NCBI GenBank assembly: GCA_021788015.1
Contig: JAJYLD010000001.1
Location: 145,581-209,580, forward strand
From: a bacterium
Lineage (GTDB): Bacteria > Patescibacteriota > Patescibacteriia > Patescibacteriales > JAKAJF01
Direction of reading: 5' to 3'
DNA length: 64,000 nucleotides
The position numbers and the translations under genes were made by a program. The notes beneath the pieces were generated by a model that was given only the letters and a program-made list of their open reading frames with translations, was not told where the DNA came from and searched no databases. Positions 3,452-63,438 of this stretch are shown here, one piece after another (positions within the stretch are counted from its first letter, which is position 1; each line of letters begins with the position of its first letter).

Positions 3452-3853
3452 ATGAAAAATCTCATCAAAATTTTAATCGTTTTACTTCTTTTGGGCGGTG
3501 CGGCTTTTTTTTATTATCTCGGAAAAGGCGACTTAAAAAAAGAAATCAGCTCGGTTCAAATCGCGAGAGAAGCAAACAATAAGCAAGAGAAACTCGTAAA
3601 CGATTACAAGTCCGGTCTCAAATCGGCGTTAAACGGTTATAATCCTGATTCCTCGAACTTGGATCAGGTTACAAACATAAAAAACAGAATCCTTAATTTA
3701 ACGGTACCGACTCAATTTAAAGATTTACATTTGAATCTTGTTTTTGCTTTCGTAAAAATGGAAGATTATTTTAAAACCGGCAATCAAGACGAAAAGGTCG
3801 CAAGCGAAAAAATGTTAAATGAAGCGAGGCAAAGCTATTCCTGGCTTAACTAA
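3452..3853 (+). CDS. hypothetical N-terminally membrane-anchored protein
   Basis: 133-aa ORF with one N-terminal hydrophobic helix (LIKILIVLLLLGGAAFFYYL). Confidence 0.5.
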   Translation: MKNLIKILIVLLLLGGAAFFYYLGKGDLKKEISSVQIAREANNKQEKLVNDYKSGLKSALNGYNPDSSNLDQVTNIKNRILNLTVPTQFKDLHLNLVFAFVKMEDYFKTGNQDEKVASEKMLNEARQSYSWLN

Positions 3854-5845: not shown

Positions 5846-6136
5846 ATGGGCCACAGCAGGAGAAAGATACTGATTTCAATCAGTGGTAGCGATTTAGATT
5901 ATATTCGGCTTGCATTAAAAGAGTTTACGGTAAGAGAAGGTGAAAATAATCCTTTCATCTTCGTTCTTGATCGTTTGATAAAGAAAGAGATAAAAGATTC
6001 GCCCAAAGGAAACCTAGAACTTTCTCGCGGTGCCAAAGCCGGGGTTTCCCGAGCTCTTGAGATGGCCTCAAGATGTTTACTCGTTTCGGATCGCGACAGG
6101 CGCGCTTACCGGTGCCTCGTGAAAAAATTTTTGTGA
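5846..6136 (+). CDS. hypothetical protein (96 aa)
   Basis: ORF preceded by AAGGGGGG about 10 nt upstream. No recognisable motif. Confidence 0.35.
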   Translation: MGHSRRKILISISGSDLDYIRLALKEFTVREGENNPFIFVLDRLIKKEIKDSPKGNLELSRGAKAGVSRALEMASRCLLVSDRDRRAYRCLVKKFL

Positions 6137-15939: not shown

Positions 15940-16068
15940 GCCACTGTAGCTCAGTCGGGTAGAGCACCTCTGAAGGTAATCTTTCTGACTGGGCAAGCGC
16001 TGGCTCGGATTAGAAAAAATCCTTCATGAAAGAGGGGGTCGCGGGTTCAATTCCCGTCGGTGGCTCCA
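15940..16068 (+). tRNA. tRNA gene interrupted in the anticodon loop (Gly-like body, anticodon unresolved)
   Basis: Acceptor GCCACTG/CGGTGGC, D arm GCTC-AGTCGGGTA-GAGC, variable GGGTC, T arm GCGGG-TTCAATT-CCCGT, encoded TCCA. The anticodon stem halves CCTCT (15967-15971) and AGAGG (16031-16035) are separated by 59 nt instead of 7. Confidence 0.7.
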
Positions 16069-34658: not shown

Positions 34659-35225
34659 TTAGGGAGCCGGAATAGTCCTGGGATCGTGGACCTCGATGGA
34701 GCCGTCATCCTGGAGGAAGAAGTCGAGGTACTCCATCTCTTTAAGGGACGGAATTCCTTCGTAGCCCAGGGCTATTGTGGCGAGAGGGATGATGGGGTCG
34801 TGTCCGAGGGCAAGACCGAAACCATTGTCCGGCATAGCATCGAACATTTTCTTTACCCCAGTCAAGGCATCGTTTGCCCAGATAGTAATTTGCTCACCTG
34901 TGTGGCCCGCCATGTAGACGGCCTCGATGTTGGTTTTGCCGGCATTTACAGCGGCCTTAAACCCATTATTCACCATTATCGCAAAGAGCTCTTCGGTTCC
35001 GATCTCGGCGACGGGCGTATGGACCCTGACGCCGGGCTGGCAGCCGACTTGGCAGATGTAGGCCAGGGCGGTCTGCACCGTCCGGTATATGCCATAGAAA
35101 ATGTCAGTGTATTTTGCCCCAATTGCTTTTTCCTGAACATATGCAATACCCTTGGGACCAATGGTGTTGTTGGCCCCGTCCTTAATTGAGTGTCTTACAT
35201 ACCTGATTTTTTTAACTGGTTTCAA
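34659..35225 (-). CDS. histidine phosphatase superfamily-like protein, high GC, antisense to the array
   Basis: IRYVRHSIKDG (RHG-like motif), YRTVQTALAY (RAxQTA-like motif), LALGHDPIIPLA (second His). TTG start with AAGGAGG 8 nt upstream. Composition is much GC-richer than the flanks. Confidence 0.55.
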   Translation of the reverse strand: MKPVKKIRYVRHSIKDGANNTIGPKGIAYVQEKAIGAKYTDIFYGIYRTVQTALAYICQVGCQPGVRVHTPVAEIGTEELFAIMVNNGFKAAVNAGKTNIEAVYMAGHTGEQITIWANDALTGVKKMFDAMPDNGFGLALGHDPIIPLATIALGYEGIPSLKEMEYLDFFLQDDGSIEVHDPRTIPAP

Positions 35226-55668: not shown

Positions 55669-55932
55669 ATGCGCAACGCATTAGAAATAGCTAGAAAAGC
55701 GGGTCGTCTTGGTTCTTTGGCTTATAACGCGACGTTGCTTTCCAGGGGCGTACCTCCCTGGAGTATGCAATCATGCGTGCCCGGTTATTCCGTAAGTCCG
55801 GCGGAAGAATTTTCTCGCTTGGAAAGTGAAGAGATGGATAATTTAGAAAGGCAGCTCATCCAGGAAGCGCTTAAACGGGCTCGTGCTCGTCCTAAAAAGA
55901 AGGAAAGAAAAAATACAAAAGAGAAGTCTTAA
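55669..55932 (+). CDS. hypothetical protein (87 aa, basic C-terminus)
   Basis: ATG 55669 is preceded by AAGGGGGGAG. The ORF-track start at 55618 is less likely. Confidence 0.4.
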   Translation: MRNALEIARKAGRLGSLAYNATLLSRGVPPWSMQSCVPGYSVSPAEEFSRLESEEMDNLERQLIQEALKRARARPKKKERKNTKEKS

Positions 55933-56025
55933 ATGACTTCTATTTTTATTTGACTTTTATTTCAAAAAATATTAAAATTTATTCATGGTTTGCGCTGAAT
56001 GCATGCCATTTTTAGTATTAGAAGA

Positions 56026-57831
56026 ATGAATAAAATTAGAAACTTTTGCATAATAGCACATATCGATCATGGCAAGTCCACACTGGCCGACCGCATGCTT
56101 GAAATTACCGGAACGATTGAAAAGCGGAAAATGAAAGATCAGATTTTGGATCGGATGGAACTTGAACGCGAAAGGGGAATTACAATCAAACTTCAACCCG
56201 TAACCATGAATTACAACGGTTATGTTTTGAATTTAATCGATACTCCGGGCCATGTGGATTTTACATATGAGGTTTCAAGAAGTCTGGCGGCGGTCGAAGG
56301 CGCCATTTTACTCGTGGATTCGACGCAAGGAATCCAGGCGCAAACATTGGCTAACTTGTATTTGGCCATGGAGCAGGACTTAACCATAATTCCGGTCGCG
56401 AACAAAATCGATCTGCCCGCTTCCGATTTGGCAAAAACAAAAAACGAAATCGTTAAACTGTTAGGCTCGGATGAGAAGGAAATTCTAAGCGCTTCCGGGA
56501 AAACCGGATTTGGAGTAAAGGAAATTCTGGACGCGGTTATCGAAAGAATCCCCGTGCCGAAAGGCGAAAGCGGAAAGCCGCTCCGCGCCCTGATTTTCGA
56601 TTCGAATTACGACGAGTATCGCGGCGTTGTCGCGTATGTAAGAATTATCGACGGCGAAATAAAAAAGGGGGACAAGGTTCATTTTATGGCCACGGGAGCA
56701 AAAACGGAAGCGTTGGATGTCGGAATATTCAGGCCCGATTACAGTTCGACCGGAATTTTAAAAACGGGAGAAATCGGTTACATAGTCACCGGTTTTAAGG
56801 ATGTAAGCGAATGCCGCGTGGGTGATACCGTCACTTTGAGCGGTTCCCTTGACAAAGGAGGCGAAGAAGTATTTAATTCTATTGAACCTCTTCAAGGTTA
56901 CGAGCAAGTCAAGCCGATGGTTTTTGCCGGAATTTTCCCGAAAGAAGGAAATGAATTTCAGGCCCTGCGCGACGCGATTGAAAAATTAAAATTGAACGAT
57001 GCTGCCTTGTTTTACGAGCCGGAGCAATCGCAGGCTCTCGGTTTCGGATTCAGGTGCGGTTTTTTGGGGCTTTTGCATCTGGAAATTTTTCAGGAGAGAT
57101 TGAAACGCGAACATAATCTGGAATTGATCGTAACCACGCCGAGCGTCGCTTATAAAATTTATAAAAAAGACGGGGCGGAAGAAATTGTTCGTACGCCGCA
57201 AAAATTGCCCGATCAGACGGAAGCGGAAAAAATCGAAGAGCCTTGGGTTTCTTTGGATATCATAACGCCGAAAGAGTTTTTGGGCGGGATCATGAATTTA
57301 ACTCAAGAAAAGAGAGGAATTTATAAAAATACGGAATATATCGACGAAACCAGGGCGATTTTGCATTATGAAATTCCCATGGCCGCGATTTTGACCGATT
57401 TTTATGATAAAATAAAAAGTGTAAGCTCCGGATACGCTTCAATCAATTATGAATACATGGATTATCGCGAGGCGGATGTGGTCAGGATGGATATTTTGGT
57501 GGCGGAAGAACCCGTCGAAGCTTTGGCCCTGATCGTTTATCGCGACGAGGCGTTTCGCAGAGGGAAAGACATTGTCGAAACGTTAAAAGAGACATTGCCC
57601 AAACAGATGTTCGTAATCAAATTGCAGGCGGCGGTCGGCGGAAAAATTATCGCCGCGGAAAAAATCTCCGCTTTGCGTAAAGACGTAACCGCTAAGCTTT
57701 ACGGCGGAGACGTGACCCGCAAAAGAAAATTGCTTGAAAAGCAAAAGAAGGGCAAAAAGAAAATGATGAGCGCGGGGAAGGGGAGCGTCGAGATCCCGAG
57801 CGATACTTTTATTAAGATTTTAAAAAAATAA
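56026..57831 (+). CDS. lepA: elongation factor 4 (LepA)
   Basis: IRNFCIIAHIDHGKSTLADR, DTPGHVDF, NKIDLP, and the LepA-specific C-terminal domain (ISALRKDVTAKLYGGDVTRKRKLLEKQKKGKK). Confidence 0.95.
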   Translation: MNKIRNFCIIAHIDHGKSTLADRMLEITGTIEKRKMKDQILDRMELERERGITIKLQPVTMNYNGYVLNLIDTPGHVDFTYEVSRSLAAVEGAILLVDSTQGIQAQTLANLYLAMEQDLTIIPVANKIDLPASDLAKTKNEIVKLLGSDEKEILSASGKTGFGVKEILDAVIERIPVPKGESGKPLRALIFDSNYDEYRGVVAYVRIIDGEIKKGDKVHFMATGAKTEALDVGIFRPDYSSTGILKTGEIGYIVTGFKDVSECRVGDTVTLSGSLDKGGEEVFNSIEPLQGYEQVKPMVFAGIFPKEGNEFQALRDAIEKLKLNDAALFYEPEQSQALGFGFRCGFLGLLHLEIFQERLKREHNLELIVTTPSVAYKIYKKDGAEEIVRTPQKLPDQTEAEKIEEPWVSLDIITPKEFLGGIMNLTQEKRGIYKNTEYIDETRAILHYEIPMAAILTDFYDKIKSVSSGYASINYEYMDYREADVVRMDILVAEEPVEALALIVYRDEAFRRGKDIVETLKETLPKQMFVIKLQAAVGGKIIAAEKISALRKDVTAKLYGGDVTRKRKLLEKQKKGKKKMMSAGKGSVEIPSDTFIKILKK

Positions 57832-57936
57832 TGTGACGCTAATATGCGAATAAATACGAATGCCGCTAATCGCGAATAAGAAACATTCGCAATTCGTGGA
57901 TTGGCATTTATTAGTAGATTGGCATAATATTTCTAT

Positions 57937-58035
57937 ATGAAGAAATCAAAAATTGAAATACTCTGGATCATTTTGAGTTTTTTTGTAATATTAAGTATGG
58001 TCGCTTGGACATTCGGGTTGATGTTTTTAAAATAA
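57937..58035 (+). CDS. possible 32-aa single-helix membrane peptide
   Basis: MKKSKIEILWIILSFFVILSMVAWTFGLMFLK. Below the ORF-track cutoff and supported only by its hydrophobic pattern. Confidence 0.25.
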   Translation: MKKSKIEILWIILSFFVILSMVAWTFGLMFLK

Positions 58036-58041
58036 AAAAAG

Positions 58042-58060
58042 AGCCCTCGAAACGAGAGCT
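58042..58060 (-). terminator. rho-independent terminator of the zinc-ribbon gene cluster (minus strand)
   Basis: Minus strand AGCTCTCG-TTT-CGAGGGCT followed by CTTTTTTTATTTT. Overlaps the TAG stop. Confidence 0.6.
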
Positions 58061-58265
58061 AGTTGATTGAAAAGTCCGCGCGCATGGCGCTGAAGTCGGA
58101 TCGCGGGGGCGTAAAATAAATGAACCAGATTTTTGTTTCTCCGCACGTTTTTGTAAGCGCACACGGTTCCATCGCGCCGCCGCAAATAGGGCAGCGGCTA
58201 CCCGCGAACACATGCTGCTCGTGGCCGCAATCCGGACATTCACAGTTTGTTTTGAGAATGTTCAT
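58059..58265 (-). CDS. mini zinc-ribbon protein 1 (68 aa)
   Basis: CECPDCG-x10-CPICGG. SD-like GAAGGGA upstream of the ATG. Confidence 0.6.
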   Translation of the reverse strand: MNILKTNCECPDCGHEQHVFAGSRCPICGGAMEPCALTKTCGETKIWFIYFTPPRSDFSAMRADFSIN

Positions 58266-58278
58266 TTTCTTTTTCCCT

Positions 58279-58503
58279 TCAGTTATTCCAGTATTGGGTG
58301 TTTAAAAGGAAAGTTGAATTTATCATGATTCCGAATCTTATCCTCTCGAATTCTTCATTTGAAACGGTCAGTCTGCAAATTGTGGTTTTTCGCAAGACAC
58401 CTTTTTCGCAACGGGGACACGGCGAATACGAGACGGCGGATTCTATATGCTTACAAACGTTACATTTGCAAAGTATGGGAATAGAGGAATTTGAAATGTG
58501 CAT
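58279..58503 (-). CDS. mini zinc-ribbon protein 2 (74 aa)
   Basis: CKCNVCK-x10-CPRC. Strong SD AAAGGAGGGGG upstream of the ATG. Confidence 0.6.
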   Translation of the reverse strand: MHISNSSIPILCKCNVCKHIESAVSYSPCPRCEKGVLRKTTICRLTVSNEEFERIRFGIMINSTFLLNTQYWNN

Positions 58504-58614
58504 AATGCCCCCTCCTTTCCTTTTTTATATTAATTCAATAAAAAAATATTTTTGTCAATTATCAAGGAAGAAAAACCCTCGAGATTTCTCGAGAGTATGG
58601 AATGCATGAAGATT

Positions 58615-58824
58615 TTACAATGTAAGAGGTCTGGCGGTCGCTGCGTAGAGAAAAAATTGCGCGGATGCCAGTGAAAAAAAGCCACCCCCGCAGAAACATT
58701 TGTTTCCCGCGCAAGTAAGTTTTATGTTTCCGCACCGGTCGCACATGCACATAACTTTTGCGCATTTGCCTTTCATTACCCTAATTCCCCCGTCCTCGCC
58801 ACCTTTGTTATTTGAACGAACCAT
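58615..58824 (-). CDS. mini zinc-ribbon protein 3 (69 aa)
   Basis: CMCDRCG-x10-CFCGGG. SD GGAGGG upstream. Own hairpin CTCGAG-AAAT-CTCGAG plus T-run downstream. Confidence 0.6.
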   Translation of the reverse strand: MVRSNNKGGEDGGIRVMKGKCAKVMCMCDRCGNIKLTCAGNKCFCGGGFFSLASAQFFLYAATARPLTL

Positions 58825-58881
58825 TTATTAAACCCTCCAAACTGGAAATTTTGACCACCATGTTAACAAAAAAATAAAAAA

Positions 58882-60663
58882 ATGTCAAGCATAAAGGTAG
58901 AAAAAAAATGGCAGCTTATGCCTAAAATCACGAAAGAATCGATAAAAAAATATCCGGGATACAATCCGGTGATTTTGCAGCTTCTTTATAATCGCGGTCT
59001 TACCGAAAAGAACGAAATCGAATCTTTTTTAAACCCCGGCGACAATATTATGAATGATCCGTTTCTTTTCAGAAATATGGGCAAGGCTTTGGATTTGATC
59101 ATTTCGCACATAAAAAACAAGAATAAAATCGTCGTTTACGGAGATTACGACGCTGACGGCGTAACTTCTTCGACGATTTTGGTCGAAACTTTGAATGTTT
59201 TAAAAGCGGACTCCGACGTTTATATCCCGAATCGGGTTACCGAAGGATACGGATTGAACAAAGGTGCGATCGAGATCATAAAAAAGATGGGCGCAAAATT
59301 GATTATTACGGTAGACGGCGGAATCAGAAATAAAGAAGAAGTCGAGTATGCGAAAATCTTGGGGTTGGACGTTATTATTACCGATCATCATACCCCCTCG
59401 GACGATGAAAATAATTTGCCGGATTGCTTGATCATAAATCCTTTGGTTAAAAATGAATCTTATCCGTTCAAACAACTGGCGGGCGTGGGCGTGGCTTTTA
59501 AGTTGGCGAAGGCCTTGATCGGCAAAGCGAAAATTACGGACGAGGAAAAAAGAAAGCTCGAAGACAGAATGTACGATTTGGTCGCGATCGGAACCGTTTC
59601 CGATTGCGTGACCGTGCTTGGCGAAAACAGATATTTCATAAAACGGGGTTTGGAAATTTTAAACCAGAAGAAAAGAAAAGGACTGAACGAGCTTATAAAA
59701 ATCGCGCAGGTGAGCGGCGCGAAACGTCTCGATTCCTGGAATATCGGTTTCCAAATCGGCCCCAGATTGAACGCGGCCGGCCGACTCGAGCACGCCAATA
59801 CTTCTTTTGAACTTTTAATCACGAAAAATGAAAACGATGCCGAAGAAATCGCGCGCAAACTTAATGAAAGAAATTCCGAACGGCAGAAGATTACGGAAGA
59901 AATCATGGCCGAAGTGGAAGCGCAAATAAATCCTGAAGATAAAATTTTAATCGGCGTCTGTCCCGAAGATTATGAAACGGAAGCGTGGAAAGAAGGAGTT
60001 ATCGGACTCGTCGCCGGGAAAATTTCCGATAAGTATTATCGTCCGGCGCTTGTTATAACCCGAAGCGAAAACGGCATGAAGGGATCGGGGAGGAGCATCG
60101 AAGAATTCAATCTCATTAGAGCCATTGACGAGGCAAGCGAGTTTTTAACGCGGTACGGAGGGCATCCGGCGGCTTGCGGATTCAGCTTGCTTCCGGAAAA
60201 TTTGGACGGTTTTGTAAAAAAAATAAAAGAGATAGCGAACATGAAATTGAAGGGGGTGGAACTGAAGCCGAAAATAATCATCGAAACGGAAATCGGCCTT
60301 GAGGAAATAAACGAAGAATTGTTCGGCGAAATTGAAAAATTCGGGCCGTTCGGCAATGACAACAACCGGCCGGTGTTTGTAAGCAAAGGGACGATTGTCG
60401 ATAAAATATTCATGGGCGCGGAAGGCCAACATGTCAAATTTAAATTAAAGAACGAGAAATCAGGTCTTTTAAGCGCTATCGGTTTCGGTCAAAGTGAAAA
60501 TTTTAAAGATTTTCAAATAGGGGACACAATCGATATTGTTTATTATCTCGATTTGAACGAATTTAACGGTAGGCGGGAAATTCAATTAAAAATTTTGGAC
60601 AGCAAAGCTTCTCGCCAAACGCCATTCTTCTTAAATCTGCAAAATGTCGGCGAAAGAGTTTAA
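58882..60663 (+). CDS. recJ: single-stranded-DNA-specific exonuclease RecJ
   Basis: DHH motifs VVYGDYDADGVTS, ITVDGG, IITDHH; DHHA1 motif GGHPAACGF. Confidence 0.92.
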   Translation: MSSIKVEKKWQLMPKITKESIKKYPGYNPVILQLLYNRGLTEKNEIESFLNPGDNIMNDPFLFRNMGKALDLIISHIKNKNKIVVYGDYDADGVTSSTILVETLNVLKADSDVYIPNRVTEGYGLNKGAIEIIKKMGAKLIITVDGGIRNKEEVEYAKILGLDVIITDHHTPSDDENNLPDCLIINPLVKNESYPFKQLAGVGVAFKLAKALIGKAKITDEEKRKLEDRMYDLVAIGTVSDCVTVLGENRYFIKRGLEILNQKKRKGLNELIKIAQVSGAKRLDSWNIGFQIGPRLNAAGRLEHANTSFELLITKNENDAEEIARKLNERNSERQKITEEIMAEVEAQINPEDKILIGVCPEDYETEAWKEGVIGLVAGKISDKYYRPALVITRSENGMKGSGRSIEEFNLIRAIDEASEFLTRYGGHPAACGFSLLPENLDGFVKKIKEIANMKLKGVELKPKIIIETEIGLEEINEELFGEIEKFGPFGNDNNRPVFVSKGTIVDKIFMGAEGQHVKFKLKNEKSGLLSAIGFGQSENFKDFQIGDTIDIVYYLDLNEFNGRREIQLKILDSKASRQTPFFLNLQNVGERV

Positions 60664-62397: not shown

Positions 62398-62613
62398 GTG
62401 AAATTAATACGGATTGATTATCATACTGGGAGTATTTCAGTTGTGGGTCCTTTTGAATCGGATGAGACGGCTGGCGCATTTTTATTATCCTGCGGTTTTG
62501 ACCACTCACCTTGTAGTGGTGAGTGGGACAGCACTAATTACGCCAATGCACGCATCATAAATCCGACCGCCCCCGACGCAATCAGGGAAACGCTCATAAA
62601 TAAAAGATTTTAA
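62398..62613 (+). CDS. hypothetical protein (71 aa)
   Basis: GTG start with strong SD AGGAGGAG upstream. No motif recognised. Confidence 0.45.
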   Translation: MKLIRIDYHTGSISVVGPFESDETAGAFLLSCGFDHSPCSGEWDSTNYANARIINPTAPDAIRETLINKRF

Positions 62614-62668: not shown

Positions 62669-62849
62669 CAAATCGTAAAATGTTCCTTAAATTTTATTAA
62701 AATCAAGGTAAGCGGATGGCCGCCCCGGTTTGCCGGGGAGGAAAGTCCGGACTTCTCTCGATTTTCAAATCGAGAAAGCGGCAGTGGGTAACGCCCACCG
62801 CTACGATAGCGATATCGGAGTAGGGAAAGTGCCACAGAGACAATACTAA

Positions 62850-63020
62850 CCAGCGCGGAGCACTGGAAATTCTAAGCACTAATATCTAAATCCTAAACGA
62901 ATTTCAAAATTAAATGTTCAAAATCTAAAACTGTTTTGAATTTATAATTTTGATTATTTGATATTGTTTAGTATTTAGAATTTAGGATTTGGGGTTTCCA
63001 TTGCTCTGCGGTGGCAAAAG
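62850..63020 (+). repeat. 171-nt hairpin insertion in RNase P RNA (P12 position)
   Basis: GC stem CCAGCGCGGAGCACTGG / CCATTGCTCTGCGGTGG encloses an AT-rich palindrome. Identical to 63137-63307 except for one base. Confidence 0.9.
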
Positions 63021-63136
63021 GTGAAAAGTCTTCAGGTGTTATTGGTTGATTAGGATATCCGATTGACTAATAGCTACTGAAATCGCACCCGCGCGAGCGG
63101 AATGCGCGGCAAACCCTGCCTGAAGCAAGAGCAAAG

Positions 63137-63307
63137 CCAGCGCGGAGCACTGGAAATTCTAAGCACTAATATCTAAATCCTAAACGAATTTCAAAATTAA
63201 ATGTTCAAAATCTAAAACTGTTTTGAATTTATAATTTTGATTATTTGATATTGTTTAGTATTTAGAATTTAGGATTTGGGGTTTCCATTGCTCCGCGGTG
63301 GCAAAAG
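63137..63307 (+). repeat. 171-nt hairpin insertion in RNase P RNA (P15-P17 position)
   Basis: Second copy of the same 171-nt sequence, located between AGCAAGAGCAAAG and TGGCTCGCTTGA. Confidence 0.9.
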
Positions 63308-63438
63308 TGGCTCGCTTGATTCCGAAGGTAACTTCGGAGCCAGATAGATGGCCATCGCCCCCCCAAAGGGTACAGAATCCGGCTTACAGCTTGCCCTGAT
63401 TTTAATAAAATTTAAGATTAATAGATTAATCCCCATTT

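Follow-up and report, generated by a model that had tools for sequence, protein, structure and literature searches.

Among the closest described counterparts of the genes discussed here are the C(P)XCG micro-proteins of haloarchaea, such as Brz of Halobacterium and HVO_2753, HVO_0758 and ~40–49 others of Haloferax volcanii. Many of them are orphan or lineage-specific proteins, several unrelated copies occur per genome, and in the documented cases they have a regulatory or adaptor-like role (PMC2253796; PMC6562870; PMC10716476; PMC11241148). Our analysis concerns three mini zinc-ribbon genes, open reading frames (ORFs) 1–3, which lie in tandem on the minus strand between lepA and recJ in a 64,000-nt stretch (the window, whose positions serve as coordinates throughout) of contig JAJYLD010000001.1 from a Patescibacteria bacterium, a member of the candidate phyla radiation (CPR). 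We consider it moderately probable that ORF1–3 are genuine accessory zinc-ribbon micro-proteins, triplicated here, which occupy a hypervariable slot in the gene string lepA–TM32–recJ–rnhA; TM32 is a conserved mini-gene for a 32-amino acid (aa) single-pass membrane protein directly 3′ of lepA. The fold and the class of small zinc ribbons are well known. What is new is the tandem triple and the recurrent, fast-turnover slot in one Patescibacteria subclade. CPR genomes are tiny and rich in unannotated small genes.

The likeness to the haloarchaeal proteins lies in their stand-alone nature, in their length (~70 aa or less), and in their two C(P)XCG-type knuckles. ORF1 follows the motif strictly (CPDCG, CPICG), while ORF3 does so loosely (CDRCG and CFCGG, with CxC), as does ORF2 (CNVCK and CPRCE, without the G). 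Judged by these motifs, ORF1–3 fit the C(P)XCG micro-proteins as a descriptive class, not as a homology family. In contrast to ORF1–3, the C(P)XCG proteins are archaeal, share no detectable sequence homology with the ORFs, and are not known to form tandem arrays at a fixed site in the genome. Moreover, the extra conserved cysteine of ORF1–3 (CxCxxC) falls outside the C(P)XCG motif. Zinc binding is absent in several of the Haloferax C(P)XCG proteins (PMC11241148), and hence cannot be assumed for ORF1–3.

ORF1–3 share the scaffold CxCxxC-x11-Cx(1–2)C. It reads C8-x-C10-xx-C13-x11-C25-xx-C28 in ORF1, comprises C12, C14, C17, C29 and C32 in ORF2, and C26, C28, C31, C43 and C45 in ORF3, where the final knuckle is CxC. 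An initial annotation, which was made by reading the sequence, had described this scaffold in all three ORFs, where it is indeed present, but had counted ten instead of 11 residues in the loop. An alignment of the three proteins leaves no invariant positions but the five cysteines and the initiator Met. BLASTP aligns just the ribbon of ~21–26 residues (ORF1/ORF2, E = 1e-3; ORF1/ORF3, E = 1e-4), the ORF2/ORF3 pair gave no BLASTP match, and no similarity between the three genes was found at the DNA level. This agrees with the view in the initial annotation that they are rapidly diverging zinc-ribbon paralogues with little in common beyond the scaffold.

To place the scaffold against its background, stop-to-stop segments of 30–140 aa were taken from all six frames of 1.28 Mb of DNA (the window and related loci) and searched with the regular expression C.C..C.{9,13}C.{1,2}C. 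Only five of the 18,705 segments matched: ORF1–3, their positional equivalent in the related locus L004, and one out-of-frame segment inside a lepA gene. The scaffold of ORF1–3 is far beyond chance. Cysteine makes up ~10% of ORF1–3, compared to 0.6% of the native proteins of the genome.

The three ORFs also have the anatomy of genes (Table 1). They were found on the minus strand at exactly the coordinates given in the initial annotation and run, as it had claimed, antisense to the dominant gene direction of the window. In ORF3, M17 is a possible alternative start. Each ORF was called as a gene by at least one public pipeline. All three proposed Shine-Dalgarno sequences (SDs) are present: GAAGGGA for ORF1, AGGAGGGGG for ORF2 and GGAGGG for ORF3. 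An anti-SD duplex of −9 kcal/mol or stronger occurs at just 2 of the 50 longest-ORF starts in the window. When alternative starts are allowed, however, a strong SD is found in roughly a fifth of the genes, several other orphan small ORFs included. Strong SDs are therefore unusual in the window, as most native genes indeed lack them, yet they are not unique to this block. Four small or medium-sized orphan ORFs elsewhere in the window, without a Pfam family, have a strong SD of −11 to −12 kcal/mol. In this genome, in which most genes are without an SD, strong SDs seem to be characteristic of a group of lineage-specific genes.

As predicted, at least two of the ORFs have their own terminator hairpin. 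One follows ORF3, while the other lies at the stop of ORF1, where it closes the ORF2–ORF1 unit and is situated 7 nt past the stop of TM32 on the plus strand. No terminator was found after ORF2, whose stop is only 13 nt from the ATG of ORF1. This arrangement therefore points to two transcription units, ORF3 and ORF2–ORF1. The latter is probably a translationally coupled bicistron, because the SD of ORF1 overlaps the TGA stop of ORF2. ORF3 and recJ are divergent neighbors, with 57 bp between ORF3 and the recJ start. The ORF1 terminator lacks a T-run on the plus strand and no plus-strand promoter-like site was found directly upstream of recJ, and hence lepA/TM32 transcripts may read antisense through the block to reach recJ.

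The nucleotide composition of the block is uneven. The initial annotation had called it richer in GC than its surroundings, which applies to ORF1 (0.53) and ORF3 (0.48), but not to ORF2 (0.39) nor to the block as a whole (0.437, against 0.445 in lepA, 0.423 in recJ and 0.392 in the window). Codon usage is clearly atypical for the genome: the codon log-likelihood ratios of ORF1, ORF2 and ORF3 were −0.02, −0.26 and −0.06 bits per codon, compared to a native mean of 0.36 and a native 5th percentile of 0.17 (70-codon chunks). These low scores are explained in part by the cysteine content.

The position of the block recurs in relatives. Related loci were obtained from three sources, namely contigs with the closest RecJ homologues, a GTDB scan, and a metagenome scan seeded by a clade-specific RecJ N-terminal motif. 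The best RecJ matches were 62–64% identical and came from metagenome-assembled genomes of the Patescibacteria group and Falkowbacteria. The gene order MurJ–lepA–TM32–recJ–RNaseH (rnhA) is conserved in the clade, and the adjacency of lepA and recJ is kept in ~55 loci. Across these loci the lepA–recJ spacer usually measures 90–150 bp, whereas it spans 1053 bp in the window, the second largest spacer seen. Relative to the ancestral lepA–recJ spacer the block is thus an insertion or expansion, which supports the possibility of an insertion raised in the initial annotation. A search for DNA repeats or target-site duplications flanking the block yielded just short, probably chance, matches.

The usual spacer holds a single TM32 mini-ORF (consensus MKRKKIVKIIWxIISxxVIFSMVLWTVGVAFM), which a strict regular expression recovered in 36 of 60 lepA–recJ spacers of the clade. 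The variable slot has its ancestral edge at TM32. A promoter-like site precedes TM32 in the window; its exact sequence is absent from the protein collection, so that TM32 has gone without a gene call, and no Pfam family covers it. Expanded spacers in relatives carry varied cargo, including genes for a GIY-YIG protein, a DUF559/Vsr-like nuclease and an alpha/beta-hydrolase, while others hold small minus-strand genes. This variety makes the lepA–recJ spacer a general insertion hotspot.

In the closest relatives (RecJ 59–66% identical), one minus-strand mini-gene is often found 37–74 bp upstream of the recJ start; at least eight related loci have a slot gene at this distance. All of these slot genes are led by a strong SD (−8.6 to −11.9), most of them are closed by a hairpin/T-run terminator, and the occupant is usually a different, barely alignable zinc ribbon. 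The slot proteins of L086 and L112 are 55% identical, with a ratio of nonsynonymous to synonymous substitution rates (dN/dS) of 0.18, and both genes carry AAAGGAGGA SDs. Their slot gene encodes a selected protein under purifying selection, a distinct conserved micro-protein without family assignment. Among the matches listed for more distant Patescibacteria (RecJ ≤56%), no zinc mini-ORF occupies the slot, with the exception of the 96-aa double ribbon in L147. Since position, orientation and anatomy are constant, we favour an ancestral slot gene, one that evolves apart extremely fast and has frequently been lost or replaced, over unrelated random insertions. ORF3, which adjoins recJ, is the positional counterpart of the slot gene, and ORF2 and ORF1 are extra copies.

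The short distance to recJ implies that the promoters of the slot gene and recJ must overlap. Across five loci, the DNA between the two genes showed no conserved promoter. By analogy with Brz, which is encoded next to bop, the slot gene (here in three copies) might encode a small zinc-ribbon protein that, transcribed divergently, regulates recJ or the recJ–rnhA unit or acts as its partner. Small C(P)XCG regulators offer a precedent (PMC2253796), and such a role would suit both the promoter-like −35 element of ORF3, which overlaps the recJ ATG, and the lack of a plus-strand promoter-like site directly upstream of recJ. Nevertheless, we give this explanation only a small chance. If the slot gene were the dedicated regulator of a conserved enzyme, one would expect the two to be conserved together, whereas most clade members have no slot gene, with recJ directly after TM32. 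The occupants are mutually unalignable and those of L089 and L093 are not zinc proteins. Alternatively, the slot upstream of recJ in this subclade might be a dedicated, fast-evolving zinc-ribbon micro-protein locus that modulates RecJ or DNA-end processing or counters mobile elements in an arms race. Every lineage would then retain one mini-protein (three in the window) that is highly diverged and strongly translated, with its gene head-to-head with recJ and antisense to read-through from lepA–TM32 into recJ. We think it improbable that this is so; if true, CPR bacteria would have a class of conflict or regulatory locus that has not been described before.

ORF1–3 have little kinship with known families. 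Scans of ORF1–3 and of the relatives' slot proteins against Pfam, NCBIfam, PHROGs and PADLOC gave only sub-threshold matches to generic zinc ribbons. Among them is a rubrerythrin-like domain of NCBIfam (E = 8e-4, under the family cut-off). The best PHROGs match (E = 0.0027) was a 31-position family without known function, and PADLOC had no match for ORF1–3. In a collection of 15 billion proteins, ORF1, ORF2 and ORF3 each form a singleton cluster.

When a profile of the three ORFs was used for an exhaustive HMMER search, 82 matches were returned at E < 1e-3. Nearly all of these are proteins of 250–1000 aa with 3–14 weak matches each, whose scores are summed. They are CapR (PF21817)/DUF4379 (PF14311) repeat proteins, some of which end in Vsr-like nuclease domains. 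Single-module minis among the matches were just P0194 (49 aa, same scaffold, E = 5.8e-4) and P0174. The CapR repeat unit measures ~64 aa (consensus ...TNEEFLEELKKINPNIEVLGEYKNSKTKIECKCKKCGHEWEATPSNLLRGKGCPKCA). It resembles ORF1–3 in its first knuckle, h-x-C-x-C-x-x-C-G-[HYN] after a K/T-rich stretch, and in its second knuckle, G-x-x-C-P-x-C-x-G. An hhalign comparison of the ORF core with CapR units gave a probability of 96.3% (E = 1.9e-9, with a 5-residue deletion), a result that is partly circular because the units had been found with the ORFs' own profile and a cysteine regular expression. A home-made CapR hidden Markov model (HMM), for which the comparison set was likewise chosen with the ORFs' own profile, gave the ORFs 10.5, 11.9 and 1.7 bits. 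The tail of ORF2, SNEEFERIRFGIMINSTFLLNTQYWNN (SNEEF...IN...Y.NN), is weakly like the CapR inter-repeat linker TNEEF..INPNIEVLGEYKNS, which is suggestive only.

ORF1–3 also differ from these families. The Pfam models of CapR and DUF4379 did not match ORF1–3 at E ≤ 10, nor a concatenation of ORF2 and ORF1 at E ≤ 1, whereas true members score 44–225 bits. The loop counts 11 residues in ORF1–3 but 16–17 in CapR/DUF4379 (16 in 244 of 277 repeats). The invariant Trp of these families (CGHxW) is replaced by Q, E and K in ORF1–3, and their loop motif P..LL is missing. CapR/DUF4379 proteins have 3–14 repeats per chain and often a C-terminal nuclease, whereas ORF1–3 are stand-alone proteins of ~70 aa, each with its own start and SD. 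No nuclease-like ORF was found within the block. We therefore rejected membership of ORF1–3 in CapR/DUF4379, because the Pfam models are silent, the Trp is absent, the loop is short, and there is no multi-repeat chain.

A role as NUMOD-like DNA-binding modules in EDxHD/Vsr homing endonucleases has been put forward for CapR-like repeats (PMC12350094), and it fits the nuclease genes in the lepA–recJ spacer of relatives. ORF1–3 might be remnants, the decayed pieces of a multi-repeat CapR/DUF4379 array from a homing-endonuclease-like selfish gene that had earlier inserted in this hotspot. The multi-repeat, partly Vsr-ended proteins retrieved by the ORF profile, the hhalign result, the 10–14 bits per unit from the home-made HMM, the linker-like tail of ORF2, the GIY-YIG and DUF559 nuclease genes in relatives, the reading frame common to ORF3 and ORF2, and the atypical codon usage would all be consistent with this explanation. 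Yet it is unlikely, since each ORF retains its own ATG and SD, and ORF3 its own terminator and promoter-like site. All 15 of the 15 scaffold cysteines are intact despite divergence elsewhere, and neither the loop length nor the missing Trp fits a CapR origin. In addition, the units are spaced by 75–93 codons, compared to a repeat of 62–68 aa, a nuclease remnant is absent, and a six-frame search of the inter-ORF DNA with the CapR HMM found nothing significant. Finally, at this position relatives have mini-genes that are single and complete, and purifying selection acts on one pair of them.

Small phage zinc ribbons (CxCxxCG-x10/11-CPxCG) have a scaffold and spacing identical to those of the ORFs, for example in L229 (45 aa), L245 (44 aa), L269 (63 aa) and L270 (87 aa). 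Within IMG/VR, 43 viral loci contain the exact ORF1 scaffold, and many of them encode proteins of 44–120 aa. Past the scaffold, however, no significant similarity was found, either by tblastn against 50,697 phage genomes (no match below E = 0.5) or by a fold search of BFVD. In many phage examples the ribbon is the C-terminal domain of a protein of ~100 aa, unlike in ORF1–3. One recurrent phage family of ~95–115 aa (MAEYIE...ADVAPVVHGRWI...), present on many viral contigs, also ends in a CxCxxCG-x10/11-CPxCG zinc ribbon.

A scaffold common to many small phage proteins could indicate that ORF1–3 belong to a conflict system, for instance as a toxin–antitoxin pair, as an anti-phage defence accessory, or as an anti-restriction or anti-defence factor of a mobile element. 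The insertion hotspot, the rapid turnover, the expansion of paralogues, the foreign-like codon usage and the bicistronic ORF2–ORF1 unit would be in line with this. We nonetheless regard it as very unlikely. ORF1–3 have neither PADLOC nor PHROGs matches at meaningful E-values, the phage genomes gave no tblastn match, and no defence, integrase or phage genes adjoin the block, whose neighbors are lepA, recJ, RNase H, a cation-efflux gene and orphan small ORFs. The defence or anti-defence role that the initial annotation had offered as an option thus found no support.

A further option in the initial annotation was that of secreted or modified peptides. ORF1–3 are small, rich in cysteine and hypervariable outside the cysteines, as one would expect of precursors of ribosomally made, modified or secreted peptides. 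Nevertheless, an 11-residue loop between paired CxxC knuckles is what one typically sees in a metal-binding ribbon, and there is no evident signal peptide or leader–core architecture. Furthermore, no maturase or exporter (radical-SAM enzyme, cyclase, protease or ABC exporter) is encoded nearby, which makes such precursors extremely improbable.

The structural models of ORF1 and ORF2 were of low overall confidence. The AlphaFold2 model of ORF1 has two beta-hairpin knuckles (strands 6–9 and 16–19), with a predicted local distance difference test score (pLDDT) of ~80 over residues 10–30, and the model of ORF2 has the knuckles plus a C-terminal helix. The best Foldseek matches of the ORF1 model were zinc ribbons (E ≥ 0.2), and eS27, Rpb12 and the NrdD ribbon were the best weak matches in fold or sequence. 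Searches of the PDB and BFVD by fold or sequence yielded just generic zinc ribbons, none of them significant. The same predicted two-knuckle fold is found in zinc ribbons of translation and transcription (eS27, Rpb12/RPABC4, bL33, uS14 type Z) and in rubredoxin-like knuckles. Unlike the ribosomal zinc ribbons, however, ORF1–3 lack basic N- or C-terminal extensions, are not conserved, and lie outside ribosomal operons, and the matches stay under family thresholds.

Our preferred reading of ORF1–3 as accessory zinc-ribbon micro-proteins would imply the following course of events. A slot gene multiplied to three copies, which may have diverged until just the metal-binding cysteines and a few flanking residues remained. 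Each protein would chelate one Zn2+ via four invariant cysteines (C10, C13, C25 and C28 in ORF1), forming a two-knuckle ribbon that could act as a small DNA-, RNA- or protein-binding module, while the unrelated C-terminal tails might give each copy its own specificity. The initial annotation had assigned no function; the putative role is now narrowed to an accessory zinc-ribbon binding module with distant CapR/DUF4379- and phage-like affinities. These affinities, together with the codon usage, the strong SDs and the hotspot, suggest that ORF1–3 originated in mobile elements or have a role against them, rather than in housekeeping. The gene anatomy, the scaffold, its positional recurrence, and the purifying selection in the sister pair of slot genes are direct observations.

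Several results weigh against this reading. Public gene calls on the block are inconsistent, as NCBI has ORF1 and ORF2 while ENA/Logan has ORF2 and ORF3. No promoter-like site was found for the ORF2–ORF1 unit, and the codon scores of ORF1–3 fall inside the upper range of wrong-frame sequence. A word-seeded homologue search of 5.8 billion proteins with ORF1 and the three-sequence profile recovered only ORF1–3 themselves. The organism has two other assemblies, but with 100% identity over 6.8 and 14.7 kb they offer no polymorphism for a selection test on ORF1–3. The overall confidence of the structural models is low (mean pLDDT of 62 for ORF1 and 54 for ORF2), and Foldseek gave no match of the ORF1 model at E < 0.001 in the PDB or BFVD. 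The circularity of the hhalign comparison and the silence of the Pfam CapR/DUF4379 models belong here as well.

Some of these points would suit an explanation of ORF1–3 as chance ORFs in non-coding spacer DNA, namely their orphan status and the overlap with wrong-frame codon scores. Likewise, terminator and promoter counts in the region were no higher than in shuffled sequence. Yet a scaffold that turns up ~1 in 18,700 times elsewhere is present here in three adjacent copies, and recurs in the same slot of L004. The SDs and terminators sit exactly at the ORF boundaries, and a related pair of slot genes is under purifying selection. In view of this, chance ORFs are hardly credible, and the initial annotation, which would have accepted them if they were not expressed and the cysteine scaffold were conserved in no relative, was right to doubt them.

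Accessory zinc-ribbon genes of this kind would have some wider interest. Reading a sequence without tools can spot genuine micro-protein genes that public callers annotate inconsistently, and the slot, in which zinc-ribbon genes and selfish nucleases turn over, offers a useful natural experiment on how micro-proteins arise, duplicate and decay. Their practical importance is limited, because the fold is very common and nothing points to a new mechanism.

Table 1. Features of the lepA–recJ region in the window, of the corresponding region in related loci (L numbers), and of other sites mentioned in the text.
Feature	Locus	Position	Strand	Remarks
lepA	window	55999-57831	+	Pfam GTP_EFTU, LepA_C
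Promoter-like site of TM32	window	57901-57928
TM32	window	57937-58035	+
Terminator-like hairpin + T-run at ORF1 stop	window	58042-58060	-	intrinsic type; −10.6 kcal/mol
ORF1 (P0001)	window	58059-58265	-	68 aa; ATG start; CECPDCG-x10-CPICGG, two C(P)XCG motifs
SD of ORF1	window	58274-58280	-	anti-SD duplex −5.6 kcal/mol
ORF2 (P0002)	window	58279-58503	-	74 aa; ATG start; CKCNVCK-x10-CPRC
SD of ORF2	window	58508-58516	-	4 nt 5′ of ATG; anti-SD duplex −12.4 kcal/mol
Terminator-like hairpin + T-run after ORF3	window	58575-58596	-	intrinsic type; 18 nt past ORF3 stop; −13.1 kcal/mol
ORF3 (P0003)	window	58615-58824	-	69 aa; ATG start; CMCDRCG-x10-CFC
SD of ORF3	window	58833-58838	-	8 nt 5′ of ATG; anti-SD duplex −9.8 kcal/mol
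Sigma-70-like promoter match of ORF3	window	58860-58888	-	TTGACA-17-TAACAT with TG; consensus match only; −35 overlaps recJ start codon
recJ	window	58882-60663	+	Pfam DHH, DHHA1, RecJ_OB
Orphan ORF with strong SD	window	5846-6136	+
Orphan ORF with strong SD	window	34659-35225	-
Orphan ORF with strong SD	window	55669-55932	+
Orphan ORF with strong SD	window	62398-62613	+
TM32 in relatives	L003	5502-5636
TM32 in relatives	L004	5524-5685
TM32 in relatives	L005	~3662-3759
TM32 in relatives	L086	3444-3542
TM32 in relatives	L088	1652-1750
TM32 in relatives	L089	3521-3619		further examples in other loci
Spacer cargo, GIY-YIG gene	L004	5212-5508	+	98 aa
Spacer cargo, DUF559/Vsr-like nuclease gene	L096	2858-3229	+	123 aa; E = 2.6e-27
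Spacer cargo, alpha/beta-hydrolase gene	L095	544-1296	+
Slot gene	L004			67 aa; CKCEGCG-x10-CQEC, scaffold as in window
Slot gene	L003			82 aa; CGACG-x8-CPECG
Slot gene	L086	3682-3963	-	93 aa; CPACQ-x13-CPQCG + third CxxC
Slot gene	L112	58-285	-	75 aa; CPACQ-x13-CPQCG + third CxxC
Slot gene	L099			70 aa; ten Cys
Slot gene	L089			85 aa; not Cys-rich
Slot gene	L093			105-aa membrane protein; not zinc ribbon
Slot empty	L005, L088, L090, L103
MAEYIE phage family	L178, L180, L194, L206, L221, L234, L236			IMG/VR
RNase P RNA match	window	62704-63402		bacterial class A
Direct repeat, first copy	window	62850-63020
Direct repeat, second copy	window	63137-63307
tRNA match (Rfam)	window	15940-16065	+	48 bits

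Two RNA matches elsewhere in the window deserve mention. The one to RNase P RNA owes its span of 699 nt to a 171-nt direct repeat, the copies of which are 99% identical at a spacing of 287 nt. An independent ENA assembly of the organism ends at position 62990, inside the first copy. Either an assembly artefact or a genuine duplication within the gene could account for the repeat. Intron- or insert-containing tRNAs have been reported for CPR bacteria. The Rfam tRNA match in the window covers the full model over 126 nt and was not called by ARAGORN, and it may be such an intron- or insert-containing tRNA.

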